In this document: piece by piece, positions 1,319 to 29,314 of the stretch | Layout: every line of letters begins with the position of its first letter | How positions within the stretch are numbered: the first letter of the stretch is position 1 | Assembly (NCBI GenBank): GCA_000092065.1 | Contig: CP000589.1 | Length of the DNA stretch: 64,000 nucleotides | Source: Ostreococcus lucimarinus | Taxonomy: Eukaryota | Reading direction: 5' to 3' (one strand) | Program-made: the position numbers and the translations under genes | The notes under the pieces: generated by a model | What the model was told of the DNA's origin: nothing | Databases searched by the model: none | What the model saw: the letters and a program-made list of their open reading frames with translations, nothing else

Positions 1319-1610
1319 GTCGCGCCTCGATCGAGCGCCGCGCGCCTCGATCGCGCGTCGCGCTTCGTCCGCGCGCGTCGATCGCTCGACGTCGAATCGA
1401 GATCGCGTTCGAAATTCGCGTCGCGATCTTCGCCGTCACCGTCGCGATCGACGCCGCGTTCGCCCGTTCGGCGGCGCCCTCGATCGCTGGAGAACCGACG
1501 CGCGCTTTCCGACCGCGCGCGACGCTCGAGCCGTCGCGCGCGTCGCCGTGTCGCGCGCGCGTGGCGGAGCCGTTAACACGCGGCGCCCATTCGTGTGCGC
1601 AAACAGTCTC

Positions 1611-1622
1611 ATTGTATATATA
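1611..1622 (+). promoter_or_regulatory. TATA-like AT island (ATTGTATATATAG) in the divergent intergenic region between the U-box gene and the GT49 gene.
   Basis: An isolated TATATATA in otherwise ~70% GC DNA lies ~110 nt upstream of the proposed GT49 start (1734). Confidence 0.25.
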
Positions 1623-1733
1623 GTTAGTAGAATGCTATCAATCGCGCTTCAATACGGAGTCGGCGCCGCGACGCGAACGGACACCGCGACGTCTCGAGTC
1701 TCGAGAGTCACGAGGTCGAGAGCGCGACGCGCC

Positions 1734-3338
1734 ATGACGAGCGGCGGAGGAAAGCGACGACGAGCGACGGCGCGCGACGCGCGAGCGCGATGGCGCGTCG
1801 CGCACCGCGCGTGGATGGTGGTGGTGGCGGCGACGGCGGCGAGCGCGGCGCGCGGACGGCGAAGGTGGAGGCGGACGCGCGACGACGCAAACGCGAGGGA
1901 CGAGACGACGTCGAACTTGACGATGTCGGACGTGTGTCTGTACTCGCCGGCGACGATCGAACGCGCGAGATCGGCGCTGCCGCGAACGGCGAGCACGTGG
2001 CGAGGGACGGTGAGCGTGGCGGTGTTGGCGGATTTGAAAACGCCCGGCGACGCGCTCGACTTGAGCGCGATGGCGAGCGAGTTGGAGGGAGACGCGGGAC
2101 GAATCGCGATCACGATGGTGGAGGCGCTACCGGAGTACGAGAATAGATTTCCAGTGAACTTTTTGCGCAACTTGGCGCGGGAGAAGTGCGTCGCGGAGCT
2201 CGGAGCGAAGTACGTGTTGGCACACGACGTCGATTTCGAAGTCTTTGTTGCGCCCGACGAGGACGCGTTTTTGAACGACGTGCGAAACGTTTTGGGGAAG
2301 CGGAGCGGCGAAAAGGTACGCCGCGCGCTGGTCGTGCCGGCGTTTCAACTTCATGCGGTGTGGTCACAACGAGTGAACGCGAAGAGAGATGCGATTCTGA
2401 ACGCGCGGCGGGTGCAAAGACAAACAAAGTCTCGCCGCAACGAAGGCAAAGACGACGACGAGTCCATCGACGCCGTCGTGGACAGTATCGCAACCAAGGG
2501 TGATGTACGACGACTAAATCCGATGTCTCTATACGAGACGCTCGTTGAAAGAGACCGAACTCGAACGGTCGACTCAAAAGCGACCGCAATAAATCTGACG
2601 CTTCCGTATTCCACGCGCGAGCGCCTCGATCGCCTCGTTCGCGAGCGTCGACTTGCGAACGGTTTCCAAATCAATTACTTTCCGATCGCGCACGCGCCGA
2701 CAAACTACACGGCATGGTTTGAGAACACCACCACTGGTGCGGACTCAACGTATCGCGTCGCGACTCCGAAGCATCCGTGGTACTACGAGCCTTACGTCAT
2801 CGTTCGCGCAGATCTTGCGTTGCCTTTCGATGAGTCTTTCGTGCAGTACGGCTTCAACAAGATTTCATTCGTTCACGAACTCGCCGCGGCGGGATTCGAC
2901 TTCCACGTTACGAAGAACGCTCACACTGTCCATACGAACACACACCCGACGCGTGCAATGGCAAACATGCAAGGACAAGACTTGGCGCGTTGTCGCGCGC
3001 ACCCTGCAGCGTCGAACGATTTTAGAATCGCTCGAGTCGGGCACTCATGCATTCCAGCTTTTTTACGCCGAATGGAGTGCGCGTACGGTTTTACCTTGGA
3101 TGACTTAGAATTCGGTGGCGTATCGAATGCGCCGCCGCCCGATGATTTGCTTTTTCGCCTACAGTCGGATGATAACATCGTCTGCTTTGGGGGATGCATC
3201 ACGGATTTAGAAGATGCGCCGCGCACGCCGGCTACCGTCACCGTGCGAGGCGGACGATTCGTCGGCGTGACGCAAGGCTCAGACGCTCGTCGGCGTAAAC
3301 GGGGCCCTTGTGAGCGCTTTGACGTAGCTTTACAGTAG
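1734..3338 (+). CDS. Glycosyltransferase family 49 (LARGE / B4GAT1-like) type II membrane protein.
   Basis: The C-terminal half matches the GT49 signature (HPWYYEPYVIVRADLALPFDESFVQYGFNKISFVHELAAAGFDFHVTKNAHTVH). An N-terminal signal anchor (MVVVAATAASAA) follows the Met at 1734. The ORF is open from 1317, but that stretch overlaps the upstream U-box promoter and is R/S low-complexity, so the start is placed at 1734 (alternative 1632). Confidence 0.6.
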   Translation: MTSGGGKRRRATARDARARWRVAHRAWMVVVAATAASAARGRRRWRRTRDDANARDETTSNLTMSDVCLYSPATIERARSALPRTASTWRGTVSVAVLADLKTPGDALDLSAMASELEGDAGRIAITMVEALPEYENRFPVNFLRNLAREKCVAELGAKYVLAHDVDFEVFVAPDEDAFLNDVRNVLGKRSGEKVRRALVVPAFQLHAVWSQRVNAKRDAILNARRVQRQTKSRRNEGKDDDESIDAVVDSIATKGDVRRLNPMSLYETLVERDRTRTVDSKATAINLTLPYSTRERLDRLVRERRLANGFQINYFPIAHAPTNYTAWFENTTTGADSTYRVATPKHPWYYEPYVIVRADLALPFDESFVQYGFNKISFVHELAAAGFDFHVTKNAHTVHTNTHPTRAMANMQGQDLARCRAHPAASNDFRIARVGHSCIPAFLRRMECAYGFTLDDLEFGGVSNAPPPDDLLFRLQSDDNIVCFGGCITDLEDAPRTPATVTVRGGRFVGVTQGSDARRRKRGPCERFDVALQ

Positions 3339-3415
3339 GAAAGTATGTTTATTGGAAAAATACAAGACGTCTTACAAAGAGTACGAGACTCGCTACAGGT
3401 CGCTATAGGTGGCTA

Positions 3416-4803
3416 TCATCGAAGGTAGATGGATGGCGAAAACGGCGCAGCCGAAGCCGCTTCGTTGTACTTCGGCCTCGTCGGCGTCGCGCACGCGCCT
3501 TCCCTCAGTCCCGTCAGAATCGGAAACTCGCTCACATCTACCCCTCGTAAAAGCTCCTCAGCTTGCTCGTACATGCTGGTGTTGGCCCGGTTCACGGTTC
3601 GCATCAAATCCAACGCGTCAACATTTTGCGCAACTCCAGTGGAATCGTCTTTCGTCTTAGTTTGCTTACCTCCCCTTCGGAACAGGTGGGAAAGACGTGT
3701 GTTACGAGTTTTTCTTGGCTTGTCCGGTGACACGAACGCTTGCAAATCCTCGATGGAGCTGATGCCTGGCATCTTTGGCATTTGAATCGAAGACGCGTCC
3801 ATACTCACGTTAGGCGGGAAGTGCGGCAGCTTGATCTTCGTCACGTTGGATAAACCCTCCACAGCGGCGATAGCGACGCCAGATGGGAGCATCGATTTAC
3901 CCGGCGATGTGATGCCGATACCTTGATACGCGCCTTCGGGTGTCGAAGTGGCTTCCAACACTGGTGACGTCGTCACCAACGGCGTGTTCGTCGTCGTGCC
4001 TCCAAAGTCTTCAAAAATCTCGCTAATCTTGAACGGGCTCTCACCCGCGTATCTCGTCGGCGTGGGCACGTCCGAGTACGGCGACGCGAAAATGTTGGCG
4101 CTAATGCCACCAGGCGGATTCGAAGCCTCACCTTCTGACGCATCAAACATGTTCGCGCGAATGTCCGAAATCGGCTCTGAGACGCGTCGCCTCGCCCCAG
4201 AGCGCGACGCTCTCGAGGACTTCTTTCGCTTGCTCATATCGACACCACCACGCTGAGACGGTGTCATGTAGTACTGCGGTATGTTGATACGCGACGAATT
4301 CAATGCCAAAGCCTTGCGCGTGTTATTCGACTTCTTGATCGAGCCAGACTTCCCCGACTTGGAATGCTCGCGCTGCTCCGCCGCCGCGAGCGCGGGGAAC
4401 CCTTGATTCAACGCTTGGTCCACCTTGCGCTTCAACGTGGAGTTCCAGTGATTTTTAATCGCGTTATCGGTGCGTCCTTTGAAAGACTTGGCGATTTCCG
4501 CCCAGCGATTGCCGTACTGTGCGTGCGCGATGATCAACTGACGGTCCTCGTCTGCGCTCCACTCCTCGCGCTTGATCTCCGGGTCGAGGTGGTTGTACCA
4601 TCTCTCGCGGCATTGCTTCCCGATTCTCCCAGGAAGCTCGCCCGCGATTTTGGACCATCGCTTCGCCCCGAGTTCGGTGACGAGCTCGATGATTCGCGCG
4701 TCCTCCTCCGCGGTCCACGGCCCTTTCACCAGTTCGGGGTTGAGCACTTTTTGCCACCTGTGCAAGCACTGCACGTCGGTGCGGCTATCGCTAAAGTACA
4801 CCG
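3416..4803 (-). CDS. MYB3R: R1R2R3-MYB (MYB3R/c-Myb-like) transcription factor, terminal exon: end of R1, then R2, R3 and the C-terminal region.
   Basis: [35 protein letters not shown]...[32 protein letters not shown]...[18 protein letters not shown] matches the c-Myb/MYB3R R2R3 repeats. The track 'start' is a GTG (Val) sitting 2 nt after a CGCGCAG acceptor, so this is an internal exon boundary. Confidence 0.8.
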
Positions 4804-4985
4804 CTGCGCGCGTCGAGAAAACACAAACTCATCGTCAGTAACCGTGAAACACGCGAGCAATCACACAAACACCGTCCTCGTCGTCCGAACGAGTGCGAAA
4901 GAGCACGACATCAACCGCCGCGCTCGAGCGTCCCGACGCTCGTTCACGCGCGCTTCGCCGAGGGATCTCGCGGTCGCTCGCGTAC

Positions 4986-5043
4986 CAATCTTCTTCCAAT
5001 TCCTCCCCCCGTACACCGCCACCGCGCCGCGCAACAATTCATC
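4986..5043 (-). CDS. MYB3R: MYB3R micro-exon (58 nt) encoding DELLRGAVAVYGGRNWKKI(A), the middle of Myb repeat R1.
   Basis: Donor ATT G|GTACGC at 4985 and acceptor CGTTCGTAG| at 5044..5046. Joining it to the 3416..4803 exon gives [22 protein letters not shown], matching plant MYB3R ([20 protein letters not shown]). Boundaries were cross-checked against track ORF 4944..5150. Confidence 0.6.
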
Positions 5044-5127
5044 CTACGAACGCAATCACCCCACGTCAGTCTCTTTCGCCGCCCTCTTTCACCGCAAACG
5101 GCGCATTCGCGTCGCGTAAATCCGCAT

Positions 5128-5157
5128 CCAAATTCAAATTCAAATTTCAAATTTTAA
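5128..5157. repeat. (AAATTC)n / (CAAATT)n AT-rich microsatellite inside MYB3R intron 1.
   Basis: ccaaattcaaattcaaatttcaaatttta on the plus strand. It is an AT island in GC-rich DNA. Confidence 0.6.
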
Positions 5158-5162
5158 CGCAC

Positions 5163-5217
5163 CTCCTCGGGTGTCCATCCTCCTTTGGCGCTTCTCCGCG
5201 TCGGTCCTCCGATCTTC
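5163..5217 (-). CDS. MYB3R: MYB3R upstream exon fragment encoding ...KGGWTPEE, the start of repeat R1. Its 5' boundary and the initiator ATG are unresolved; further exon(s) probably lie between about 5220 and 5600.
   Basis: GGA TGG ACA CCC GAG GAG|GTGCGT donor at 5162. Spliced to the micro-exon it yields KGGWTPEEDELLRGAVAVYGGRNWKKIA, the canonical W-x2-EED-x2-L R1 start. An in-frame stop upstream and no ATG imply at least one more upstream exon. Confidence 0.45.
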
Positions 5218-5715
5218 CTGCTCGCGACGCGCGCACGGCGCGAAAGTCAGTAAATCATTCTCGCGTTTCGCGCTCGTCGCGACGACGCACCCATCACCGA
5301 ACGCGCGCGGCGCGAGTCGGTCGTTCGAATGCGGTCGCGATGCGCCGGCGTCGCGACGCGTCGCTTTCTTCGCCGCTTTCCGACTTCCGGACGCGCTCGC
5401 GCGACCGCTCGATCGCGCGCCGGATTTCTTTTTCGTCTTTCGCGGCGACGGCGGCGACGGCGAGCGTCCGCGCGCGGGCTTCGTCGCGCGGCGCGCGCGG
5501 GCGACCATCTTCGTGCGCCGCGAACTGCGGGCGGCGTCGCGTCGTTCGGCTTCACTACGCGTCCCGTTTCATAAATGTTTTTAATACGCGTGTCACTGTA
5601 TGCGCAGCTCCGAGTTGTCTGATCGTGTACCACGCGCGGAGTCAACCGCGCGCCGAGTCGCCGCGCGACCGCGCGACACGGCGACGCGCGCGCGACGGCC
5701 CGGTCCGGTCCGCGC

Positions 5716-6696
5716 ATGACCGTCGAACCGTCGTCGAGCGATGGCGACGCCCGTTTGATGAAAGTCGCCGTCGACGATGACGCGCGCGAAGATGCGAAAG
5801 ATGCGACGACGCGGGACGATTCATGTCGCAGCGGCGCTTCGACGACGGACGACGCGCTCGCGGCGTTCGCGCACGACGAGCTCGATCGCGCGAAGACGAC
5901 GATCGCGCGATTACGGTTGGAGAAGCACGCGCTCGTGATGGGGAACAAGCGAGAGGGCGAGGCGAGAGCGAGGGCGGAGGTCGAGGCGAGAGCGCGCGCG
6001 GAGGCTGAGGCGAAGGCGTTGGCGGCGGAACGCGGGGCGTTGACTGAGCGTGAACGGGCGTTGCGAGCGTTCGTCGAGGATAAGAAGGCGCATGATGAAG
6101 CGTTGCGTCGGGCGAGGGAGGAGTGCGCGCGGTTGACGGTGGCCTTAGAGTCAGAACGAGCGGACATGGAGCGGGCGTTCGCGGCGAGGACGGGGGCGAT
6201 GCGCGCCGAGTGCGACGCGCGCGTGGCCAAGGCGAAGAAACAAGCGGAATCGACGATGACGGCGCGCATGGAGCGATCTGTAAAGAGAATTTTGGCGCAG
6301 AATAGGAAAATGAGCGATGAGCTTCGCGTGCAGGTGAATGAGACAGACGCGTTGCATCGGCGCTTCGCCAAGGCGAACGCCGAGGCGGAGAGCTTGCGCC
6401 GACGCGCGGCCGCGGCGGATGACGTCGAACGCGAGCGCGCGGAGCTCGGGGCGATGCGAGCGAGGGACCTACGACGAGCAGAGGAGAAAATCACGACGCT
6501 CGAGCGCGGTATCCGCGAACTCATGGAAGCGTTCGAGACGCAAAAGCTCGAGTGGGAACGGGAGACGAACGATTTGCGACGCGCCAACGATGAGGAAGTA
6601 ACGCACCTTAAACGTTCGCTGGCGTTGAAATCGCGCGAGTTGGTCAACATCAGGCGCTTAGCGAAAGAGGTAGTGTGTCATTATGAAGACTTGTAA
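5716..6696 (+). CDS. Hypothetical coiled-coil protein (326 aa).
   Basis: Long E/K/R/A/L heptad-like sequence with a varied, non-repetitive C-terminus (EWERETNDLRRANDEEVTHLKRSLALKSRELVNIRRLAKEVVCHYEDL). The antisense ORF 5247..6650 is S/A/R low complexity and is rejected. Confidence 0.4.
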   Translation: MTVEPSSSDGDARLMKVAVDDDAREDAKDATTRDDSCRSGASTTDDALAAFAHDELDRAKTTIARLRLEKHALVMGNKREGEARARAEVEARARAEAEAKALAAERGALTERERALRAFVEDKKAHDEALRRAREECARLTVALESERADMERAFAARTGAMRAECDARVAKAKKQAESTMTARMERSVKRILAQNRKMSDELRVQVNETDALHRRFAKANAEAESLRRRAAAADDVERERAELGAMRARDLRRAEEKITTLERGIRELMEAFETQKLEWERETNDLRRANDEEVTHLKRSLALKSRELVNIRRLAKEVVCHYEDL

Positions 6697-6816
6697 GTGT
6701 ATCTAATTCATCAATCGTTTCATTACATGTTGGTCAAACCGCCGTCGCGCTGCGCTCGGTCAAAAAAAATCAATGCGTCGCGCGGCCGCGATTGATTCTG
6801 TAAAAATATATCATTC

Positions 6817-7650
6817 TCACCAGTGGTGATTGAGAAATCGGCCGCCGTGTCCACCGCCGATTGCGGCGTGATGCTCGGCGTCTTGCGTCACGTTCTCCGT
6901 CTCCACCACGGTGCCGTCCGGTAAAGTTCTTCGACTCACCGTGCGCGTTCGTCGAACGCCATCCGCGCCAATCGTCGTCGTCGTCGAAGTCGACGTTGAC
7001 CACGTCGCCCCTCGTCCTCCGAACGCCGTCGACGATGAAACCGCGCCTCCCATCCGACCCCCTCCACCGTCTCCGCCGAACCCATCGCCGAACCATCCGT
7101 CCAACGAATCGACGTCTTCAAAAATCGACCGTCGCCGTCGAAAAACCGAATCGGCGCGCTCCATCGCGAACGGATCCCGTCCGAACGATCCAAACGTCCC
7201 CATCCCTCGCCCACCGCGCGTCCCGTGCGCGTCGTCCCCGAACACTCGCCGGAACGTCTCGAACGGGTCAAAAAAGTATCCTCGTCCATCGAAATCATCC
7301 TCATTCGTCGTCGTCCGCCCTTCGTCTCGGCGTTCGCCTCGCCTCGCCTCGTTCCCGTCCTCGTCGGCTTCCTCGTCTTCCTCGCGCCCTCGTCGCGCGC
7401 GTCCCTCCGCGAATCCGAATCCACGCGCGCGATCGTACCGCGCGCGTCGCTCTTCGTCTCGCACCGCCTCGTACGCGCGCGACGCGCGCTCGAACGCGTC
7501 GCGGCCGTTCGGATTCTTGTCGGGATGCCACCGCACGGCTTGTCGACGATACGCGCGACGAATCTCGTCGAACGGGGCGTCGCGCGCGACGCCCAGGACG
7601 TCGTACGCGCACGCGCGGTCGTCGTGCGCGCGCGGGGTCTCGCGCGACAT
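6817..7650 (-). CDS. DnaJ (Hsp40) subfamily B protein, DNAJB6/DNAJB2-like.
   Basis: J domain with the HPD motif (YDVLGVARDAPFDEIRRAYRRQAVRWHPDKNP). G/F-rich region with DPFETFRRVFG, and a C-terminal S/T-rich segment (TVSRRTLPDGTVVETENV) typical of DNAJB6-class proteins. ATG at 7650. Confidence 0.8.
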   Translation of the reverse strand: MSRETPRAHDDRACAYDVLGVARDAPFDEIRRAYRRQAVRWHPDKNPNGRDAFERASRAYEAVRDEERRARYDRARGFGFAEGRARRGREEDEEADEDGNEARRGERRDEGRTTTNEDDFDGRGYFFDPFETFRRVFGDDAHGTRGGRGMGTFGSFGRDPFAMERADSVFRRRRSIFEDVDSLDGWFGDGFGGDGGGGRMGGAVSSSTAFGGRGATWSTSTSTTTTIGADGVRRTRTVSRRTLPDGTVVETENVTQDAEHHAAIGGGHGGRFLNHHW

Positions 7651-7715
7651 CGACGCCGCGGACTCGACGCGACGGTTTGTGATGATTCGCGACGCGCGCG
7701 GCGCGAATGCTCGGA

Positions 7716-7742
7716 ACGGAACGGAACGGAATGGAATAGATT
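7716..7742. repeat. (GGAAC)3(GGAAT)2 pentanucleotide repeat in the intergenic region between the START and DnaJ genes.
   Basis: ggaacggaacggaacggaatggaatag. Confidence 0.4.
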
Positions 7743-7756
7743 ACACGTAGATTACG

Positions 7757-9733
7757 TCACGACGACGACGCGGACGCGACGACGGGCCGCGCGCGCGCCA
7801 GGGCGTCGGGAACGATGACCTCGGCGGTGACGTCGTCGAATTCGGGTTCGCCCAACCGTCGACGAACCATGCGATATAAATCAGGATTGGCGTCGATGCG
7901 CGGCTGAAACAACGAATCGCTCGCGCCGAAATACTTTGGCGATTTGAGCATCTTGTCGATCATGCGATGGACCCACGGAGCCATGACGCGAAGGACGAAA
8001 CGCACGACGGTGGTGGGGATGAAACGCATCTTGACGTCGGCGTGGACGACGATGTCGCCGCGGGTGCGGATGGATTTTGAACCGGCGACGGGCGGGAGCG
8101 CGCGCATGCGCATGCCGCAATTGCCGACGAATTCGATGCGCTTGCGCGATTTGGCGGACGGTGGCGCGCCCGAACCCAGGTCGTCGCCCGATTTGTTGGT
8201 TCGAGTGATTAATATCGCACACGAATGCGGGACTTCTGATTCGAAATCATCCATGCCGGGGATGTTCAAGTGATCGTACGCTCGCGTCGGCGGTTGACCG
8301 ACGTACGTGGAATCGATGACGATGATTTTGTCTCGAGCGCTCAGCGGCCAGGGAAGCCAAATGGCGGAGTATACGACCAAGTGCGTGAGCCCGCGAACGA
8401 GCATTATGGACGTTTCTATGGCATAGACGTTCCAAAGCGTCATTAAATCCCACTCGCGCGCGATGGCGACGAGTCTATGCGGCGGCGCGTCAAACGTCGC
8501 GCTCAGTTTGATGCTGTGCACCGTTCCGCCTTTGAAGCGTCCGTAATATATCACCAAACGCTCGTCCAAATCAGGGTCGGCCTCGAACGTTTCTTGCACC
8601 ACCCCCGGGACGCCAGCGGTTCCACGCACGCTGCTTTCACCTCCGCTCTCGCTCCCGCTCAACGGATCTGGTTGCGTCGCGATGACGGCGCCGTCGCTCG
8701 AACTCACGCTACCGCTCCTCGAGTGTCTGCTTCGTCTCCGACGTCCATACCGAGGCGCCAACGGGTCTTCTTCACCGTCCGACATCGACGCGCGCGAACT
8801 CGCAAGATCGGTGAGTTCGCCAAAATCAATCACGCCTCGTTTCTCCCTATCCGTCCGTCCTAAACTCACCTCGACTTCGGCGCCCGACTGTCGCAAACTT
8901 CTCCGAGCGTCGTTCGCGCCCCCACGCTCGAAATCCACGCTCGAAGCCCACTGTCGACTCAACCCTCGCCCTAAATCTATGCTCGACGTCCGTCGACTCC
9001 CGCTCTCGCTCGCTCGCATCCGCCCGAAATCCACGCTCGACGTCCTCCGCATCCCAAAGTCCACGCTCGACGCTCGCCGGCTGTGATTCGCTCCAATGAT
9101 GACCTCCGCGTCCACCTCCACGCTCGCCTGTCGCCGATGATGCGCCGCTCGCTTCGCCCCCTTATCCACCGGTTTCCACCCATCGTGATGTTCCTCTAAT
9201 TCAACGTCGTTCAGCGCGATCGCTTGTTCGTACACGTCCCGCCACGCCTCGCGTCGACGCGTCGACGCCTCGTCCCGCGCGCTCCCCGTCGCGTCCTCCC
9301 GCGCCACCATCCACAGCGCCGCCTCGAGCTCGCCGAGCGCCGCCAACCGTTCGGCATCGTTCGCGCACGCGTCCACCGTCGTCAGCGCGTCCGCGCGGCC
9401 GATCCACTCGCGCCGCGCGCGCGCGACGTCGAAATTCGCGTCGCATCGCACGTCGTCGTCCCAATCGATCTCGAACGCGTCGTGACGCGCGTCGTGGAAC
9501 GCGTCGTGGAGCGCGTCGACGTCGGCGTCGGCGCGCGCGACCGCGTCTCCATCGTCGGCGCGCGGTCTGCAGCAGCGCGCGCCCATGACGGGCGCGCGTC
9601 GCGCGATGGCGCGTCGCGCGCGCCGCGCGTTCGTTAAATACGGTGATTGATAGCGTTCGCGCGCGCGCGAGGCATCGCGCGACCGCACACGCGCGCGCGA
9701 CGCGCCGTCGCGAGCGAACGCGCGAGGGAACAT
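7757..9733 (-). CDS. START (StAR-related lipid-transfer / Bet v1-like) domain protein with a repetitive low-complexity N-terminal region.
   Basis: The C-terminal half has START-like motifs (LPWPLSARDKIIVIDSTYV ... RFVLRVMAPWVHRMIDKMLK). The N-terminal region carries degenerate repeats (SSVDFGMRRTSSVDFGRMRAS...SSIDLG...SSVDFERGG) encoded by a DNA tandem repeat near 8900-9100. Confidence 0.6.
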   Translation of the reverse strand: MFPRAFARDGASRARVRSRDASRARERYQSPYLTNARRARRAIARRAPVMGARCCRPRADDGDAVARADADVDALHDAFHDARHDAFEIDWDDDVRCDANFDVARARREWIGRADALTTVDACANDAERLAALGELEAALWMVAREDATGSARDEASTRRREAWRDVYEQAIALNDVELEEHHDGWKPVDKGAKRAAHHRRQASVEVDAEVIIGANHSRRASSVDFGMRRTSSVDFGRMRASESGSRRTSSIDLGRGLSRQWASSVDFERGGANDARRSLRQSGAEVEVSLGRTDREKRGVIDFGELTDLASSRASMSDGEEDPLAPRYGRRRRSRHSRSGSVSSSDGAVIATQPDPLSGSESGGESSVRGTAGVPGVVQETFEADPDLDERLVIYYGRFKGGTVHSIKLSATFDAPPHRLVAIAREWDLMTLWNVYAIETSIMLVRGLTHLVVYSAIWLPWPLSARDKIIVIDSTYVGQPPTRAYDHLNIPGMDDFESEVPHSCAILITRTNKSGDDLGSGAPPSAKSRKRIEFVGNCGMRMRALPPVAGSKSIRTRGDIVVHADVKMRFIPTTVVRFVLRVMAPWVHRMIDKMLKSPKYFGASDSLFQPRIDANPDLYRMVRRRLGEPEFDDVTAEVIVPDALARARPVVASASSS

Positions 9734-10191
9734 GCGCGCGATTACGATGGAGGTCCCGGTCGACGCCGCGGCGCCGCGGCGCGCGCGCGCGAGCGAGACG
9801 ACGAAGGAAACGATGCGCGCGCGGGTCAGGGTTGCGCGCGCGCGGTGCGGGACGACGAACGCGCGAGACGGCGCGCGCGACGTCGCCGCGCGCGCGGGAC
9901 GACGCGTGGAGGTGCGTGTGATATCGCGCGATCGCGCGCGCGCGCGACGACCGGCGGAGAGACGCGGAAAGGGCGATCGGAGGCGCGGCGGTGCGCGACG
10001 CTGGTGGTGGGTTGAGGGTTAGAGCGCGAGGGCGCGCGACGGCGTCGAATTCGGTTCGCGACGAAGACGATGGACGCCGATGCGCGGCGATGCGAACGCG
10101 GGAAAACGCACGAGACTGACGGTGTGAATTGTGGTCGTTCGCGCTGACGCAGACGCGGGCGTCGTCGGATGCGATTCCGGATTCGTTTAAG

Positions 10192-22212: not shown

Positions 22213-24717
22213 TCAGCCGGCGGCGCTCGCGATGACGATGGAACGGTCGGCACCGTTTACACCGCTCTTTTTCTTCCGCAACAACGCCAACTCGTCGTGC
22301 AACATCGTTAGTTCGTGCGTGTACGCGTCCTTGTGCGCGATGAACATCTTTAGCTCGCTTCGCAAGCCTTTGATTTGACGCGACTTTTCCTTGATGTGCG
22401 CGTGCGTCTCTCGTAGCTCCTCAAACGCTCGAGGTCCGGGTTGACGGGACAACACCACGCGAAGTTCGGCGAGTACTTTTGTTTTCTCGCTAATCAGAAT
22501 GTCTTTCGTCGTCACTTCTTCCGTTTTCGTGATCAGTTTGCGCTGCAACATTTGAACTTTCTGAATCAACTCGTACATAGTCGGATCGCTGCCTTTGAGC
22601 TGTCGCCAACGATGGACATTCATCGGATTCTCGAGTTCCTCGCTGAGTGCCTTAACTTTTGTGCGTTCGTGGAGAAGTTCGCGACCAAGCGTTTGGACTT
22701 CGTGCTTCAACGCATCGATGCTTGCCGCCGCTTCTCGCAGGGACGTGAGTTCTTGCGCGTGCGACGCCAATCTGAGCTTCAACGTTTTAATCTCGCGAAC
22801 GCGCTCACGATACTCGGCTTGGCCTTGATTCAAAATTTTCTGCTGAACCTTGACTTTCTCGTAAAGTAGCGCGCATTCTTGATTCCGCTGCACAAGTTGT
22901 GCGTTGAGAACGTCACGATCACGCTTGATGACATCGAGCTGCTTGCGATGCGCCTCGCGACTTTCTCGCAACGACGCCACAGATGAGCGTAGCGTCTTCG
23001 ATTCATCACTCGTATGCTTCAGAGACTCTTGCGTCTCGCGAAGCGTCGAGTTTAGCTTATCATTCTGTCGTCGTAGAGCATCGTGTTCTTTGTCCAACTT
23101 GCGATGCTCGAAACGCTCGCCCGCGATGACGGCGTCCTTCATTCTAAGTTCCTCGTGCAAACCTTCCATCGCCACAGTCTTGGCCTTGAAATCGCGTTTG
23201 ATCTCCGCAATTTGTGACTGGGCCTCGACGAGAGACTTTGATTGTTGATTGCGTTCCGCGCACACGACGTCGTACGCGTGCTCGGCTTGCTTAATTTTGC
23301 TTTCTGCATCTTGTAATTCTTGCCGTAAATCAACGATTTGAGACTGTCGATCATGAACGTCATCCTCCAACTTTTCCTGACGACGCACCGCCGCCGCGAT
23401 GTCCGCCAATAACTTTGCACGTTCTTGATCGAGACTTTTTATCTGCATCTCTTGCTTAACTTGTTCGCGTTTGTAACTCTTGATTTCGTTTTCGAGTGTT
23501 TGACGCTGCGCCTCATGAATACGCAGCAAATCTTGTTGCCGACTTGTGGCGTTCTGCGCCTGCGTAGTCGTCTTCAGAAGGACATCGCGCTCGCGCATAA
23601 GATCTTCTTTTCGCCTTTGCTCGTTATCTAAGTCTCTTTTTTGTTGCTCGAGACGTTGTTTGAGTAATTGAATCTCGCGCTTGAGCGCATTCTTTGCGTC
23701 GTCTGCGTTCAATTTCGTTTGCTCCGCCGCGCGGAGTTTAGACTCTAGTTGAGTGGACTTTTTTAAAGTACTCTCCTTTTCACGCTCGAGCGTTTTGATT
23801 TCATCGTTCAACGCTCGAATTTCGTGCATCTTGGCCGTGTTTGCATCCTCAGCACTCTTATTACTCGCGCGAGCTTCGTCAAGTTCGCGATGAAGCTTGT
23901 CAGATTTGCTCGCTAACACGTTCAACTCTTTCTGAGCCGCCTCTGTCCGTCGCTCTTGCAAACAAGTATCTTTTTCTAGCTTGATAATCATTTCGTCAGC
24001 CTTTGTTATCCTCGCTTTATACTCTCTGATCTCAATGTCGCGTTCTTCAGAGCGTTCCTGTACCTCGCGCATCTCGCGCTCGAGACGTTCCTTCGTGCGC
24101 TTTTGCCGCTCCACCTCCATCGCACTCGCGTGCGACAGATCACGTGCATTTTGTAATTCTACGTCTAAATCTAATTTCGTCGATTCAGCCTTTCTCGTTC
24201 GCTCCGATAGCTTATCGATATCCTCCCTGAGCCTGATGGTTTGCTCGAGTAATTCATCTCGTTCGGCGGTGAGACTCTCCTTGGCGCTCAGTAACGATTC
24301 AATCTCGCGCGAGTTCGCCCTTCGCGCACTCGCGCGCTCCATAAACAACCCATCACTGGTCGTCGTTTCGCAACCCCCTAGCTTGTCTTCATCTCGTGTC
24401 AGCCGTTCAATTTCCATCTTCAATTCGCTCGCCTCGCGCTTACTCGCCAACTCGCTCTCGTGCGATTCATCCACCATCGCCCACGCCTTCTCTAACTCTT
24501 CTTTGAGCGCATCGATGGTTGATTGATCTTCCCGCGACAAATCCAGCGTCATCATCATTTTCCTCGCCTGTCCGCGACACTCCTCCGCGAGCGTCGCGCA
24601 CTTTGCCGTCAACGCTCGCTCGCGCTCCGCGGCGTCCGCGAGCGCGGCCCTCACCTTATCGCACTCTTCTCGCACCTTGACCGCGCGCGCGTCGTCGCGC
24701 GGTAATTTTGATATCGC
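22213..24717 (-). CDS. Long coiled-coil protein, CCDC39/CCDC40-like (axonemal 96-nm ruler family), exon 2.
   Basis: About 830 aa of continuous coiled coil with a conserved C-terminal block (NPMNVHRWRQLKGSDPTMYELIQKVQMLQRKLITKTEEVTTKD...LSRQPGP). The track start at 24675 is a GTG. The frame stays open upstream to a CGCGCGCACAG| acceptor at 24718..24720. Confidence 0.6.
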   Translation of the reverse strand, partial: AISKLPRDDARAVKVREECDKVRAALADAAERERALTAKCATLAEECRGQARKMMMTLDLSREDQSTIDALKEELEKAWAMVDESHESELASKREASELKMEIERLTRDEDKLGGCETTTSDGLFMERASARRANSREIESLLSAKESLTAERDELLEQTIRLREDIDKLSERTRKAESTKLDLDVELQNARDLSHASAMEVERQKRTKERLEREMREVQERSEERDIEIREYKARITKADEMIIKLEKDTCLQERRTEAAQKELNVLASKSDKLHRELDEARASNKSAEDANTAKMHEIRALNDEIKTLEREKESTLKKSTQLESKLRAAEQTKLNADDAKNALKREIQLLKQRLEQQKRDLDNEQRRKEDLMRERDVLLKTTTQAQNATSRQQDLLRIHEAQRQTLENEIKSYKREQVKQEMQIKSLDQERAKLLADIAAAVRRQEKLEDDVHDRQSQIVDLRQELQDAESKIKQAEHAYDVVCAERNQQSKSLVEAQSQIAEIKRDFKAKTVAMEGLHEELRMKDAVIAGERFEHRKLDKEHDALRRQNDKLNSTLRETQESLKHTSDESKTLRSSVASLRESREAHRKQLDVIKRDRDVLNAQLVQRNQECALLYEKVKVQQKILNQGQAEYRERVREIKTLKLRLASHAQELTSLREAAASIDALKHEVQTLGRELLHERTKVKALSEELENPMNVHRWRQLKGSDPTMYELIQKVQMLQRKLITKTEEVTTKDILISEKTKVLAELRVVLSRQPGPRAFEELRETHAHIKEKSRQIKGLRSELKMFIAHKDAYTHELTMLHDELALLRKKKSGVNGADRSIVIASAAG

Positions 24718-25073: not shown

Positions 25074-27164
25074 TTAAAATCCATCTAGTCCGCGAGCAAA
25101 AGCTAAATCATCGAATTCGCGCGCGAGAGCGGCCACGGCGGTTCGGTCGATGCCGGGATTGCGGGAGAGCGTCGCGGCGAACGTGCGAGACGAGGACGAT
25201 TCCGCGAGACGGCGGACGGCGACGGCGGTGAGGTCACAGTCGGAGACGTCGAGCGTGTGCAAGTGAGGGAGATTGGGGAGAATATCGGTGATGGCGTCGA
25301 TGCCGTCATCGCCGATGTGGTTTCCGCGGAGGCTGAGGATCTCGAGGGGAGTAGGCGACGCGCCGGCGGCGGCGGCGGCGACGTCGAAGGCTTCGGTAAA
25401 ATCGTACGTGCCGCGCCATGAGATGACGTTCATGGACAGATCGCAACACTTTAGCATAGGAAAGTGACCATTTTGGAAGAGATTGGCCAGCGCTGGCATC
25501 GCCGAGTCGCCGATTCCGTTCGAACCAAGACGAAGAGTCTCGAGGCGACGCAGCGTTTTCAGCCCTCGAGGCGCTTCGCACAACCAAATCAATCCGTTAT
25601 CTCCTAGAGAACAACCACTCAGATCCAAGATCACGAGTGATTTCCCTATGGTTTCGAGATATGTAGAAAGCTCGGCCGCGCCGTTGGCGTCAAAACAATC
25701 GTTGCCGCTCAGATCGAGGTTTCGTAATTGTTCGCACCGCGCCACGAGTCTTGAAGCGACGTCGGCGCCGCCAATCGCGGACACGCCAACGTTCGCCAGA
25801 CGAAGCTCGCGCAAGCCAACAAATTCGATGTCACAGATTGATTTTATGCCTTCGTCGCCGATTGGGCAGAAGCTTACTTCGAAACATTCCAACTCGCGTG
25901 CGAGAGCGGGCGGAGGAAACCACGACTGTCGAAGCGCGACAATGGCTTGAGCGTTCAATCGGTCGCAACGGCTGAACTTTAAGCTCTTCAATCGACTGAC
26001 CCACGAGTTTGCAACGTTTCCACTCGAATTCGTCATCGCGTGCAAAATTTCCTCGTCGACATCCTCACCGATAATCTCCAAATCGCGCACGTCCGATTCG
26101 CAGAGAAAATCTCCCAAGGCGCGCCATCCGTCGACATCGAGCCAAGTTTCGCACAACTTCAACCTAATTAGCTTCACTCGTGACGCGTGTTTCGCAAACA
26201 CGTCGAGCAAACAACGAAGCGTGTCTTGATGTATTCTAAACGGCCCTTTCGCGTTAATCTCCAGACTCTCGATCGCGCCTCCGTGCGTCTCGAGTGTTGA
26301 ACACAAGTCATCAGCAAAGCGCTCCGTAAACGCGTCCGCGGGTGTGATCTTGAGCACGTTTAATTCAGCATCAAACCACTCACGAGCGCGTTTCGGCATT
26401 CTTGCTCGAATTTGCCCGCGCGCGCCGCACCCACCGCGTGTGATTTCGAACAAACAAGGTCGACCTTCCAACGATTCTTTGCGAGCGAGCTCGTCGAAAT
26501 CCGCCACGGGAATCAGCGTTGCGGTCCACCCACCGGCTACGATTGCCTCGTACAGCGCCCGATCCACGTGCGCCCAACGCGACACGTACGCGAGTAAAAG
26601 CATCCCATTATCACGCTCGAGCTTTGTGTGCACGACGTCTAACACATCGCGCGCCGATGCCTCGCTGTACACCACGTCGCTCGCGACGACGAGTGGAAAC
26701 GTTTTTCTCGCGAAATCATCTGCGTCCCCTCGCCCCCACTCCAGCGTCCCCGCCGTCGCGCTCCCGAGCGACGTCAATACATTGTCATCTACAAAGTTTC
26801 GATTCATCTCGATCGATCGCCGTAGATCGCTCGCGACGTCGGCGTTTCCGTCCGTCAGCGTCGTCTCGCGCGCGGCGCCGCTCAGCCAGCACAGCATCCC
26901 AGGCGTCCCCAGCCCCGCGCCGAGCTCGAGCACGCGCGAGCGCTCGACCACGATCGAGTATCCTTCGTCGCTGGCTAAATACGCGCAGAGCGCTGGGAGA
27001 GCGCGCCAGGCGACGCGTCCAGTCTCGTCGCACTCGGCGGTTGAAGTGTCTTCTGGAAAGAGTTTCGGACGCCGCGTGCGCACGCGCACGACTCCGCGAG
27101 GGGTTTTGAAGGCGTGCACGTCGACAATATCATCGTCGGCGCCGTCGGACGCGGTCGGGGTCAT
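25074..27164 (-). CDS. Fusion protein: N-terminal class I lysine methyltransferase (METTL21/FAM86, Methyltransf_16-like) plus C-terminal leucine-rich repeats (ribonuclease-inhibitor-like).
   Basis: MTase motifs VLELGAGLGTPGMLCWLSGA ... VVASDVVYSEA. The C-terminal half carries RI-type LRRs (LRELRLANVGVSAIGGADVA...LRNLDLSGNDCFDANGAAEL...LVILDLSGCSLGDNGLIWL...LRLGSNGIGDSAM...LSLRGNHIGDDG). The first ATG is at 27164; the track start at 27257 is a TTG. Confidence 0.65.
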   Translation of the reverse strand: MTPTASDGADDDIVDVHAFKTPRGVVRVRTRRPKLFPEDTSTAECDETGRVAWRALPALCAYLASDEGYSIVVERSRVLELGAGLGTPGMLCWLSGAARETTLTDGNADVASDLRRSIEMNRNFVDDNVLTSLGSATAGTLEWGRGDADDFARKTFPLVVASDVVYSEASARDVLDVVHTKLERDNGMLLLAYVSRWAHVDRALYEAIVAGGWTATLIPVADFDELARKESLEGRPCLFEITRGGCGARGQIRARMPKRAREWFDAELNVLKITPADAFTERFADDLCSTLETHGGAIESLEINAKGPFRIHQDTLRCLLDVFAKHASRVKLIRLKLCETWLDVDGWRALGDFLCESDVRDLEIIGEDVDEEILHAMTNSSGNVANSWVSRLKSLKFSRCDRLNAQAIVALRQSWFPPPALARELECFEVSFCPIGDEGIKSICDIEFVGLRELRLANVGVSAIGGADVASRLVARCEQLRNLDLSGNDCFDANGAAELSTYLETIGKSLVILDLSGCSLGDNGLIWLCEAPRGLKTLRRLETLRLGSNGIGDSAMPALANLFQNGHFPMLKCCDLSMNVISWRGTYDFTEAFDVAAAAAGASPTPLEILSLRGNHIGDDGIDAITDILPNLPHLHTLDVSDCDLTAVAVRRLAESSSSRTFAATLSRNPGIDRTAVAALAREFDDLAFARGLDGF

Positions 27165-27309
27165 TTCTGTGCTGTCATGGAGTCGGCGCGGGAGGCGCGC
27201 TGTGCCTCGGCGGTTGGACGCTCGGCGGCGAGTGGCTACTCTACGTTTGTGATACAAAACTATCGCCTAAAATCTACGTGCGATCGTGAAAAAAGTGCGT
27301 CTGTGACGC

Positions 27310-28392
27310 TCATTCGAAACAAAACGGTAAGGTGATGACGGACTCGGCATCGCGAGCCGGAAATTTCAACTCCAACAGCGCGCTCGCGATGTCGAGCATG
27401 ATGGCGTCGCGAATGTCCGTCTCACTCGGGAGCTCGGGCAAAGGAATCGGCGTCAGGGTATCGCACGTCCATCGTAGATTGGTCACCGCACCATCTGGAG
27501 CTACGGTGAGCGCGGCGCAAACCATGCCGCTCGCTCGGGGAAGCTCGACGAGACGTCCGTACAGTTCCCCGAGCGCGCCCTCGAGCGTCGGCGACGCGTC
27601 CTCCTCCGTCAATGCGCCAGAAAACGACGGTTCGGGGTCTTTAAACCATCCGTGTAGTACCAACCTTCCGTGCCTCGGATCTTGAGTCCCGAAAACTTCA
27701 GTGACGCCGTGCGGTAGGCGCGGGTCGAACGCCACGAGACGCCCAAACGTCGGCGCGATGGTCTCCATGATTTGCGACCGCTCGACGACCTCGCCGGCGT
27801 CAAAATTCTTCCAATAATTCAATCGCTCGGGGCGCATTATTTGCGTTTCACCGCCCCTAAAATGTGCGCCGTACGACCCATCCTCCGCGTCGTTCTTTGT
27901 CAAACTGAGCACGAAGGCCCACGGTCCGTGCGGCACATCGGCGTGCAACTCTTGCCGCATCCCGTGCACGTAACACGACATCCACACCGGCGTGATCGCC
28001 GAGCATCCCAACTCTCTCCGTCCGTACTCCAACAGCGCCTTTTCCAACTCGCCGTACCGCTCGGCGCCGAAATAGTCCTCCGCGGGCGTTCGCAGCAGCG
28101 TGTACTGATTCGGCACGTGCCAGTAATCCCACACGAACCGCTCCGGATCCACGCGCAGCGGATCGCGCGTGCGTCCATCGTACACGGCGCGCAAATCGTT
28201 CGCGAAATCGCTCACGAAGCCATCGACGACGCGCCAGTGCGTCGGTTTTTCCGCGATTTCCACGTCGAACCCAGCGTCCGCGTCGTCCTCGTTCGTCGCC
28301 CTTCGCGTCCCGCGCGCGCGCCGCGAGCGACGGCGCGTGCGCACCGTCGTTCCCGACGCGCGCGCGCGCGCGACGCTCGACAGCGCCGACAT
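27310..28392 (-). CDS. Conserved hypothetical protein, possibly of the 2OG-Fe(II) oxygenase superfamily.
   Basis: Non-repetitive 360-aa ORF. Candidate HxD...H iron-binding residues (ELHADVPHG ... RLPHGVTEV) and an aromatic-rich block (FVWDYWHVPNQYTLLRTPAEDYF). The functional call is tentative. Confidence 0.4.
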   Translation of the reverse strand: MSALSSVARARASGTTVRTRRRSRRARGTRRATNEDDADAGFDVEIAEKPTHWRVVDGFVSDFANDLRAVYDGRTRDPLRVDPERFVWDYWHVPNQYTLLRTPAEDYFGAERYGELEKALLEYGRRELGCSAITPVWMSCYVHGMRQELHADVPHGPWAFVLSLTKNDAEDGSYGAHFRGGETQIMRPERLNYWKNFDAGEVVERSQIMETIAPTFGRLVAFDPRLPHGVTEVFGTQDPRHGRLVLHGWFKDPEPSFSGALTEEDASPTLEGALGELYGRLVELPRASGMVCAALTVAPDGAVTNLRWTCDTLTPIPLPELPSETDIRDAIMLDIASALLELKFPARDAESVITLPFCFE

Positions 28393-28489
28393 GCGCGCCG
28401 GCGTGCGCGGTTTCGTCGCGGTTTCGTCGATCCTTTACATCAATTCGCGACGCACCGCGCGGCGTCGCGTCGCGCGCCCGTCGCGCGCG

Positions 28490-29314
28490 ATGCCGCCCAA
28501 GGGAAAGACGAATCTCCTCGCCGCGCGCATCAAGCGCGTGATGCAAAAGGACGAGGACGTGGGAAAGATCGCCGGCCCGGCGCCGATCGTCATGGGCAAG
28601 GCGTTGGAATTATTCGTCAAGCAGCTCGTGACGACGGCGAACGACGTCGCGGTGCTGCACGGGAGCAAGACGGTGAACGGGAGTCACCTGAAGGGCGCGG
28701 TGGCGATGGTGCCCGAGGCGTTCGATTTTTTGAGCGACATCGTGGAGAAGGCGAAGGATTTGGGACCGCCGCCGGATCTGCGCGCGGTGGAGGCGGAACT
28801 CAAGGCGGCGGTGGGGGGGAAAGGGAAGAAACGAGGGAAAAAGGAAGCGCAGGGAAGCTTGGGGGACTTGGATTTCGGCGGTGGGTCGTTGGATGCGGAT
28901 GATGGAGAGGATGAGACGGCGTCCGCGAAGCGGAAATCAAAGGCGAAAACCAAGGCGAAGCCGAAAGCCAAAGGACGAGCGAAGAAGGTTAAGAAGGAGG
29001 AGGATTTCATCGACGACGATGACGAGGAGTTCGTGGATGAAATGAGTGAAACTGATGAAGAATTTGATGCCGATGCGCCCGTGGAGCCGAGGGAGAAGCC
29101 GACGCGCGCGAGGTCGTCTCGCGCGACTCCGAAGAAGTACGTGGACGATTTCGTCGACGAAGACGAAGAAGACGAGGAGGCGCCAGTGAATCCCAGCGCA
29201 AAGGTGAAGGAGGAGCCCGTCGGTAATTTAGGCTCGCTTGATGTTCCGTTCGCTGGTGGATCGCTCGCGGCGGCGGCGCCAGACGTGGGCGAAGACGAGG
29301 ACGATTACGACTAA
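28490..29314 (+). CDS. DRAP1: Histone-fold transcription regulator NC2-alpha / DRAP1-like with a long K/E/D-rich tail.
   Basis: LLAARIKRVMQKDEDVGKIAGPAPIVMGKALELFVKQLVTTAN...NGSHLKGAV...FDFLSDIV parallels DRAP1 ([36 protein letters not shown]...TSHLKQCIE..FDFLKDLV). ATG at 28490; the track ORF is open from 28169. Confidence 0.7.
   Translation: MPPKGKTNLLAARIKRVMQKDEDVGKIAGPAPIVMGKALELFVKQLVTTANDVAVLHGSKTVNGSHLKGAVAMVPEAFDFLSDIVEKAKDLGPPPDLRAVEAELKAAVGGKGKKRGKKEAQGSLGDLDFGGGSLDADDGEDETASAKRKSKAKTKAKPKAKGRAKKVKKEEDFIDDDDEEFVDEMSETDEEFDADAPVEPREKPTRARSSRATPKKYVDDFVDEDEEDEEAPVNPSAKVKEEPVGNLGSLDVPFAGGSLAAAAPDVGEDEDDYD

Follow-up and report, generated by a model that had tools for sequence, protein, structure and literature searches.

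A candidate substrate-receptor role for the leucine-rich repeats fused to a METTL21-like methyltransferase in Ostreococcus lucimarinus

Introduction

Each characterized lysine methyltransferase of family 16 acts on a single abundant and conserved protein, for example a chaperone, a translation factor or calmodulin, and the basis of this target choice is understood only in part. A gene on the minus strand of a 64,000-nucleotide stretch of Ostreococcus lucimarinus DNA (contig CP000589.1 of assembly GCA_000092065.1; hereafter the window) bears on this problem. A first, sequence-only reading had described the gene as an unusual fusion of a lysine methyltransferase domain with leucine-rich repeats (LRRs) of the ribonuclease inhibitor (RI) type. 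This raises the question of whether the fusion is genuine and, if so, what the repeats do for the enzyme. We find that the fusion is a real, ancient and conserved accessory-domain variant of METTL21-type lysine methyltransferases, and we propose that its LRR half is a built-in substrate receptor.

A single gene encodes both domains

25074..27164, minus strand: complete single-exon coding sequence of the family-16 methyltransferase-LRR fusion (696 aa plus stop codon), from the open reading frame (ORF), its translation and the start Met of the orthologues

The minus-strand ORF extends without interruption over 25074..27257, or 727 aa counted from an upstream TTG. Its first ATG, at 27164, opens an uninterrupted frame of 696 codons plus a stop codon, the length given in the sequence-only reading, and the start Met is common to the orthologues in our alignment. 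The sequence is compact and intron-free with a GC content of roughly 62%. A Pfam scan of the protein matched Methyltransf_16 (PF10294) at residues 46–196 with 55.6 bits (cut-off 21, E 7.3e-15) and LRR_6 (PF13516) on the C-terminal half with 74.5 bits (cut-off 23.4, E 2.3e-21); LRR_4 and LRR_1 also exceed their cut-offs in the C-terminal half. By these scores the matches of both halves are far beyond chance, and the claim that one ORF joins a methyltransferase domain to RI-like repeats is borne out. The same scan, taken up to E=1, detected no FAM86, NACHT, NB-ARC, F-box or RanGAP-specific domain.

We regard the fusion as one gene, not two, because the alignments point to a linker that is conserved and under purifying selection, with both domains collinear across relatives. 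An alignment of 19 sequences passes the domain junction without a gap and shows no insert specific to the window. The concern that an unrecognized intron or stop might separate the domains thus finds no basis, as neither a stop codon nor a frameshift nor a lineage-specific insert lies between them. Compared with a 94% identical relative (L011), the ratio of nonsynonymous to synonymous substitution rates (dN/dS) is 0.41 in the N-terminal/methyltransferase segment, 0.21 in the linker and 0.30 in the LRR domain, and the differences are distributed 21/25/46 over the three codon positions, most of them at third positions. These values indicate that every segment of the protein is under purifying selection.

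Several ORFs of 82–302 aa overlap the fusion gene in other frames or on the opposite strand (25306..27252), for example an antisense ORF at 26344..27252. Arg, Ser, Ala and Pro abound in their translations, as expected when GC-rich coding DNA is read out of frame. Nothing that we saw suggests that these ORFs are genes, although they were not individually compared with databases.

The fusion is conserved in picoalgae and in more distant lineages

The O. lucimarinus protein is 100% identical to P0001, a representative of 222 member sequences in marine metagenomes, and 19 further full-length clusters contain both Pfam domains at 42–94% identity to it. The Ostreococcus tauri orthologue (XP_003081050.2, CEF98940.1, UniRef A0A090M3Y7) has 691 aa, 46% identity and the same two domains. 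This full-length protein is publicly deposited already under the automatic name "Leucine-rich repeat, ribonuclease inhibitor subtype", which omits the methyltransferase, and a literature search found no publication on it. The architecture is likewise public under other automatic names, including "predicted nicotinamide N-methylase", "RanGAP" and "NLRC3" in Joint Genome Institute (JGI) metagenomes.

A profile search of 1.8 billion representatives recovered at least five further fusions at 28–32% identity (P0161, P0176, P0237, P0247 and P0257), all of which have Methyltransf_16 and LRR_6, with PF10294 scores of 58–71 bits. This search was dominated by giant LRR proteins, such that fusions are visible only above ~193 bits and remoter ones have possibly been missed. 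In a scan of metagenomes we obtained 70 loci, 52 of which encode both halves collinearly; these fall into at least nine sequence groups with GC contents of 0.37–0.72. At one locus (L073, 3717..7761) the fusion is spread over ~12 short collinear exons on one strand, separated by gaps of ~30–320 bp and 45–73% identical to P0161. Because these exons are collinear the fusion holds in an intron-rich genome too, and by sequence the family is present also in a lineage with a very different genome architecture. Taken together, the sequence comparisons indicate that the fusion is universal in Mamiellophyceae-type picoalgae and reaches further microalgal lineages.

Orthologous fusions in other green algae, a check proposed in the sequence-only reading, are borne out by the O. 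tauri protein, by ~20 clusters, by the five more distant groups and by 52 of the 70 metagenome loci. Whether the architecture is "unusual" depends on the frame of reference: no characterized member of the family has an LRR domain, but within the algal group the fusion is universal. Other divergent full-length fusions were seen at L060 (GC 0.37), at L061, L062, L065 and L067 (GC 0.65–0.72) and at L068 (GC 0.43). Two 360-aa "hypothetical protein" entries, P0027 and P0028, belong to the 90%-identity cluster of P0001; 360 aa is also the length of the neighboring oxygenase ORF, and these entries may be mere fragments of the fusion.

No stand-alone member of the fusion's methyltransferase subfamily was found, either in a search with the methyltransferase half or among the metagenome loci. 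The search with the methyltransferase half alone returned only fragments and P0021, a 394-aa methyltransferase-only ORF (locus L012). A search with the diverse alignment, in which close relatives took up all 8000 candidate places, added nothing new. We rejected P0021 as a stand-alone enzyme since a 1-nt frameshift within LRR repeat 2 accounts for its break: frame 0 stops at "...LLNLVEIE" and frame +1 resumes at "IVETWMNDDCW...", exactly matching the intact P0019. On the same contig (JGI 3300046170, Ga0494229_00862, 850..10076) a kinase, the methyltransferase-LRR fusion and CFAP58 are each broken into two adjacent ORFs, which suggests assembly indel errors and not pseudogenes. The methyltransferase-only metagenome loci were also rejected, being contig-end cuts or other family-16 enzymes. 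One of these candidates, a stand-alone family-16 ORF at L071, has GADLAF in place of SDVVY and lacks the SRW motif described below. No viral copy or relative of the fusion was found in a sequence scan, and a fold search gave viral proteins with LRRs only.

The methyltransferase half retains a METTL21-type active site

27066..27137, minus strand: N-terminal beta-hairpin, residues 10–33, before the methyltransferase core (AlphaFold2 strands 12–21 and 24–33, predicted local distance difference test (pLDDT) 85–91)
27009..27056, minus strand: low-confidence invariant loop, residues 37–52, PE.TS....DETGRV, with cage residue T48 just before W53 (pLDDT <50)
26430..27029, minus strand: seven-beta-strand methyltransferase domain, family 16, residues 46–245 (Pfam, PDB profile search, Foldseek)
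26898..26933, minus strand: motif I S-adenosylmethionine (SAM)-binding loop VLELGAGLGTPG, residues 78–89 (E80, G82, G84, G86, P88 and G89 invariant)
26667..26684, minus strand: Post II motif and family-16 hallmark ASDVVY, residues 161–166, with catalytic Asp163 and cage Tyr166 (both invariant in all fusions)
26553..26582, minus strand: subfamily signature SRWxxVDRAL, residues 195–204, C-terminal to the Pfam match (alignment)

To place the enzyme within family 16 we searched the PDB with a profile built from the methyltransferase halves of 11 diverse fusions. The best match was Arabidopsis METTL21D (7OAS; PMC9942839) with 69 bits, followed by human METTL21D (66), METTL21A (64), METTL21C (58), EEF2KMT (56), CaM-KMT (54) and METTL21B (53). 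These seven solved lysine-specific members thus score 53–69 bits, versus 25 bits for a histidine methyltransferase homologue (4rfq). In the AlphaFold2 model residues 77–243 show the strand/helix alternation of a class I fold, and Foldseek aligned the N-terminal half with human VCP-KMT (8hl6) over 242 columns (TM-score, TMt, 0.78; root-mean-square deviation 3.7 Å). The fusions form a separate family-16 subfamily that is nearest, by these scores, to METTL21D/A and not to FAM86/EEF2KMT. Of the earlier label "METTL21/FAM86-like" the first part therefore stands, while the second does not: a FAM86 domain is missing, and EEF2KMT scores lower than METTL21D/A. The lead of METTL21D over METTL21A and METTL21C is small, and on these scores orthology to any characterized enzyme is not demonstrable.

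Structural work on METTL21D showed that Asp96 contacts the SAM ribose, that Trp126 stacks on the adenine, and that the substrate lysine lies in a cage formed by Val38, Trp43 and Tyr147, the last of these belonging to the hallmark (D/E)XX(Y/F) (PMC9942839). The Post II motif has been implicated in lysine positioning (PMC10238732). Hidden Markov model alignments identify the counterparts of D96 and W126 in the fusion as D105 and W143, and those of V38/W43/Y147 as T48/W53/Y166. D105, T48, W53 and Y166 are invariant in both a close (19 sequences) and a diverse (11 sequences) alignment, as are E80, G82, G84, G86 and Asp163, while W143 is sometimes Phe. The hallmark, at the end of beta4, is present as an invariant D163-V-V-Y166. 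Both motifs quoted in the sequence-only reading are located here, VLELGAGLGTPG at residues 78–89 and VVASDVVY at residues 159–166. Since residues for SAM binding and for the lysine cage are kept, the enzyme is very probably active. The cage residues and the scores of the lysine-specific members also make lysine the likely acceptor.

The first cage residue of METTL21D resides on a beta2-alpha2 loop, where it shifts by ~8 Å upon substrate binding, and its size sets how many methyl groups are added: trimethylation is lost in the V38L mutant and gained in L26V of the plant enzyme (PMC9942839). Read against these mutants, the approximately Val-sized Thr48 weakly suggests that trimethylation is sterically possible in the fusion. 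Residues 37–52 of the fusion align with the same METTL21D loop, and despite a pLDDT below 50, D46, T48 and G49 are invariant in 24 of 24 fusion sequences. The conserved sequence, the low pLDDT and the METTL21D alignment lead us to infer that this loop is a mobile, substrate-gated lid.

A signature of the form SRWxxVDxxL (S195-R196-W197-x-x-V200-D201-x-x-L204) follows the Pfam match, and R196, W197, D201 and L204 are invariant even at 28–32% identity. Alignments show that METTL21D lacks it, as does the stand-alone family-16 ORF of L071.

A conserved linker joins the enzyme to a 13-repeat solenoid

26277..26429, minus strand: structured linker, residues 246–296 (alignment, AlphaFold2 model, dN/dS 0.21)
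25095..26276, minus strand: LRR solenoid of 13 repeats, residues 297–690, RI-like with some Cys-type repeats (Pfam, AlphaFold2, Foldseek)

The linker contains motifs that are invariant in the close family (R261-E262-W263 and D277-A278-x-T280-x-x-F283), and E302-x-N304-x-K306-G307-P308 is also invariant in the 19-sequence alignment. AlphaFold2 models the linker with strands at 251–254 and 270–273 and a helix at 283–297 (pLDDT 77–89). The whole-chain model, with the 19-sequence alignment as input, has a mean pLDDT of 84.5 and a predicted TM-score (pTM) of 0.83. This pTM exceeds what is usual for a floppy chain of ~250 + ~400 residues, which suggests a fixed relative orientation of the domains, and the two probably form a rigid body. 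No solved chain spans both halves in a Foldseek search against solved structures.

The sequence-only reading had counted about 10 repeats, whereas the structure model contains 13 beta-strand repeats. Their lengths of 26–36 residues are not the regular alternating 28/29 of ribonuclease inhibitor, and in repeats 4, 5, 8 and 12 a Cys takes the place of Asn at a conserved position, giving a mixed RI-like/Cys-containing array. Foldseek matched the LRR half to RI (TMt 0.62–0.70, with 4per_A at 0.70; E 1e-11 to 1e-12), yeast RanGAP rna1p (1yrg_A, 0.75) and FBXL2 (0.66). Its top matches also include the LRRs of NLRP14, NLRP3, NLRC4 and NOD2, and the likeness to FBXL2 and FBXL17 is confined to the LRR fold.

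The concave face of the repeats is conserved

25266..25730, minus strand: repeats 7–11, residues 479–633, candidate partner-binding site (per-repeat concave conservation 0.66–0.82, the highest)

We scored conservation on ten non-redundant orthologues and obtained means of 0.65 (methyltransferase core), 0.57 (linker) and 0.60 (LRR domain), by which the repeats are as well conserved as the enzyme core. Within the repeats the structural core scores 0.77, the ascending loops 0.67, the exposed concave strands 0.63 and the convex helices 0.50. The gap between concave strands and helices was matched in only 3 of 10000 permutations. Within repeats 7–11 the residues D484, S486, D514, G517, W527, G547, S548, D575 and W583 are invariant, and of these D484, S486, D514, W527, S548, D575 and W583 are exposed. 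This pattern supports a concave face that binds one fixed protein partner, and not a fast-evolving sensor.

A proposed role for the repeats as substrate receptor

We propose that the LRR domain is the built-in substrate receptor of an active family-16 lysine methyltransferase, a reading to which we assign a probability of roughly 55%. In this model the concave face would bind one specific, conserved, folded partner protein and hold it such that the Thr48/Trp53/Tyr166 cage beside SAM receives the target lysine. Loop 37–52 would then close over the lysine, as the equivalent METTL21D loop does, and the conserved structured linker would join the methyltransferase rigidly to the LRR horseshoe. The role of the repeats would parallel that of the FAM86 domain in EEF2KMT and of the LRRs in F-box and IpaH ligases. 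Enzymes of family 16 are known to identify single folded substrates very specifically by their three-dimensional structure (PMC10238732). Substrate recruitment by the repeats, as suggested earlier, agrees with the conservation of the concave face and with the confidently predicted rigid model, but it is still an inference from them. The more specific proposal of a new enzyme class, a seven-beta-strand lysine methyltransferase equipped with an LRR receptor of its own and docking one conserved protein on repeats 7–11, we put forward tentatively, at a little under even odds.

Several observations weigh against the receptor model. Characterized METTL21 enzymes find their substrates without an accessory domain, and the LRR domain could serve otherwise. 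Some of the concave signal (D/S/G at positions 5, 7 and 8 of the repeat) coincides with the consensus of RI-type LRRs in general and may be structural and not due to a ligand. Only 19 sequences stand behind the AlphaFold2 model, and the gene neighborhood described below yields no candidate substrate or functional clue.

Other explanations for the fusion

The repeats might instead be an anchor or scaffold that tethers the methyltransferase to a complex or site, with an LRR partner that is not the substrate. A conserved concave face and a rigid fusion fit this equally well, and stand-alone METTL21 enzymes recognize the substrate by the catalytic domain itself (PMC9942839; PMC10238732). A flagellar site could be imagined, as structural LRR proteins of axonemes (RSP15, DRC5 and trypanosomatid LRRPs) rank among the closest sequence matches to the LRR half. 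However, these matches (E 1e-8 to 1e-11) represent generic RI-type similarity. O. tauri has no flagellum, and because it nevertheless retains the gene, the protein is unlikely to be flagellum-specific and a flagellar anchor is not its general role. Since a rigid linker (pTM 0.83) also suits substrate positioning better than loose tethering, we consider an anchor unlikely. We think it less probable again that the repeats form a regulatory or autoinhibitory sensor of the NLR or IpaH kind that restrains the methyltransferase until a ligand binds, possibly a defense switch against the viruses that are abundant in these algae. The NLR proteins among the top Foldseek matches and the predicted mobility of the catalytic lid (residues 37–52) are in keeping with a sensor, and autoinhibited LRR-enzyme fusions do exist, IpaH9.8 being one (PMC7728815). 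Against this stand an apparently single syntenic orthologue per lineage, a dN/dS of ~0.3 and a highly conserved concave face. The LRRs of immune sensors are usually multi-copy and fast-evolving. Moreover, Pfam detects no NACHT or other switch domain, and the sequence and fold scans revealed no viral relative.

An acceptor other than protein lysine, be it histidine (as with METTL18/Hpm1), a protein N-terminus or a small molecule, is improbable to a still greater degree. Family 16 does contain a histidine methyltransferase, and the Hpm1 homologue 4rfq matches our profile weakly, but its 25 bits compare with 53–69 bits for the seven solved lysine-specific members, and two features of the lysine-specific METTL21D, its Post II Asp-x-x-Tyr and its Trp/Tyr cage, are invariant in the fusions. 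JGI names several cluster members "predicted nicotinamide N-methylase", a label that we take to be a legacy transfer from yeast Nnt1, later recognized as an eEF1A methyltransferase. We give next to no credence to an artefact or dead gene, whether by chance read-through of two genes, an in-frame intron or a pseudo-enzyme. An apparent sign of it, the calling of P0021 on L012 as two ORFs, traces to a frameshift away from the domain junction on a contig where the kinase and CFAP58 are also split. Continuous alignment without a window-specific insert, a partly invariant linker under purifying selection, collinear halves at 52 independent loci and the invariance of all cofactor and catalytic residues argue for a functional fusion.

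Genomic neighborhood

27310..28392, minus strand: 2-oxoglutarate (2OG)-Fe(II) oxygenase, 360 aa (PF13640, E 5e-7)
22213..24675, minus strand: CFAP58-type coiled-coil flagellar protein, 820 aa (CFAP58 central domain PF21771, E 7e-44)
28169..29314, plus strand: histone-fold-like ORF, N-terminal part KRVMQKDEDVGKI..., with a long acidic/basic tail (positional counterpart of the CBFD_NFYB_HMF gene)

The fusion gene is immediately preceded, on its own strand and at a distance of only 145 bp, by the oxygenase gene. The ORF at 28169..29314 is divergent from the oxygenase gene and occupies the position of the CBFD_NFYB_HMF gene in every syntenic relative. Relatives at 94, 54, 44 and 42% identity share the gene order kinase / histone-fold protein / 2OG oxygenase / fusion / CFAP58 / ATP synthase delta-epsilon / Orai, which is partial in a 51% identical relative where the contig ends just past the fusion gene. 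Adjacency of the oxygenase and the fusion is kept in all close-family loci examined (the window, L001, L002 and L008–L012), from 94 to 42% identity. The distant P0161 group has other neighbors (MEKHLA, kinase, hydrolase, ATP11) and lacks the oxygenase adjacency, and because its neighborhood differs the fusion is older than the synteny block. A functional tie to the oxygenase or to CFAP58 was therefore rejected, as their adjacency is part of a longer syntenic block that is absent in the P0161 group; co-regulation of the oxygenase and the methyltransferase may nonetheless occur. A local dip of GC to 0.51 overlies the Lys/Glu-rich CFAP58-type gene. By itself, this flagellar gene would imply a flagellated organism.

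Significance

A domain fusion in a protist genome is not surprising by itself, and this one leaves current understanding unchallenged. Its interest is that a hard-wired LRR domain offers a handle on target choice in family 16, since its binder is probably the substrate or the complex that the enzyme serves. All Mamiellophyceae-type picoalgae share the fusion, among them O. tauri with its tractable genetics, and it occurs in remoter lineages too; its partner is therefore likely to belong to the core machinery of the cell. If the receptor model is correct, the substrate would add to the short list of family-16 targets and the repeats would be the first LRR domain to direct protein methylation. 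The practical value is modest: our analysis mends misleading automatic names and flags a testable enzyme family, and it overturns no concept.

Comparison with known systems

Among the solved structures that we searched and the review and papers that we consulted, characterized family-16 enzymes are single-domain or FAM86-bearing and none has an LRR domain, and a full-text literature search found no description of a Methyltransf_16-LRR fusion. The best profile and structural match to the fusion is METTL21D/VCP-KMT (human; AtMETTL21D; PDB 7OAS, 8HL6, 4LG1), the lysine methyltransferase of p97/CDC48. The two have in common motif I, the Post I Asp, an adenine-stacking aromatic residue, Post II and a three-residue cage after a mobile loop. 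METTL21D is a single domain of ~220–230 aa without LRRs, whereas the fusion adds a 400-residue LRR domain. Furthermore, the first cage residue is an invariant Thr48 in the fusion and Val/Leu in METTL21D, and the fusion has the SRWxxVDxxL signature and the N-terminal hairpin, unlike METTL21D. We saw no link to CDC48.

The repeats resemble those of RI, RanGAP (rna1p) and NLR proteins in being LRR_6-type, cytosolic-type protein-binding horseshoes, but identity is 13–20% and the fusion has no NACHT domain, RanGAP C-terminal domain or F-box. NLR receptors have NACHT/NB-ARC before the LRRs, where the fusion has a methyltransferase. The similarity to RanGAP that we found (9b62_G, E 5e-7 over ~120 residues; 1yrg_A in the fold search) is generic, and "RanGAP" and "NLRC3" as used by JGI are names transferred from LRR proteins in general.

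FBXL F-box proteins and IpaH E3 ligases, like the fusion as we propose it, join a catalytic or recruiting module to a target-binding LRR domain; regulation in the IpaH LRR-NEL arrangement is treated in PMC7728815. These proteins act in ubiquitination with unrelated catalytic folds, and the likeness is thus an analogy of design and not homology. By analogy, the closest known precedent for receptor logic would be EEF2KMT/FAM86A, which like the fusion combines a family-16 catalytic domain (56 bits) with a non-catalytic accessory domain. According to PMC10285254, the FAM86 domain confers substrate specificity on EEF2KMT. The EEF2KMT accessory domain is N-terminal and has the FAM86 fold, whereas that of the fusion is a C-terminal LRR domain, with only ~45 residues before the catalytic domain.

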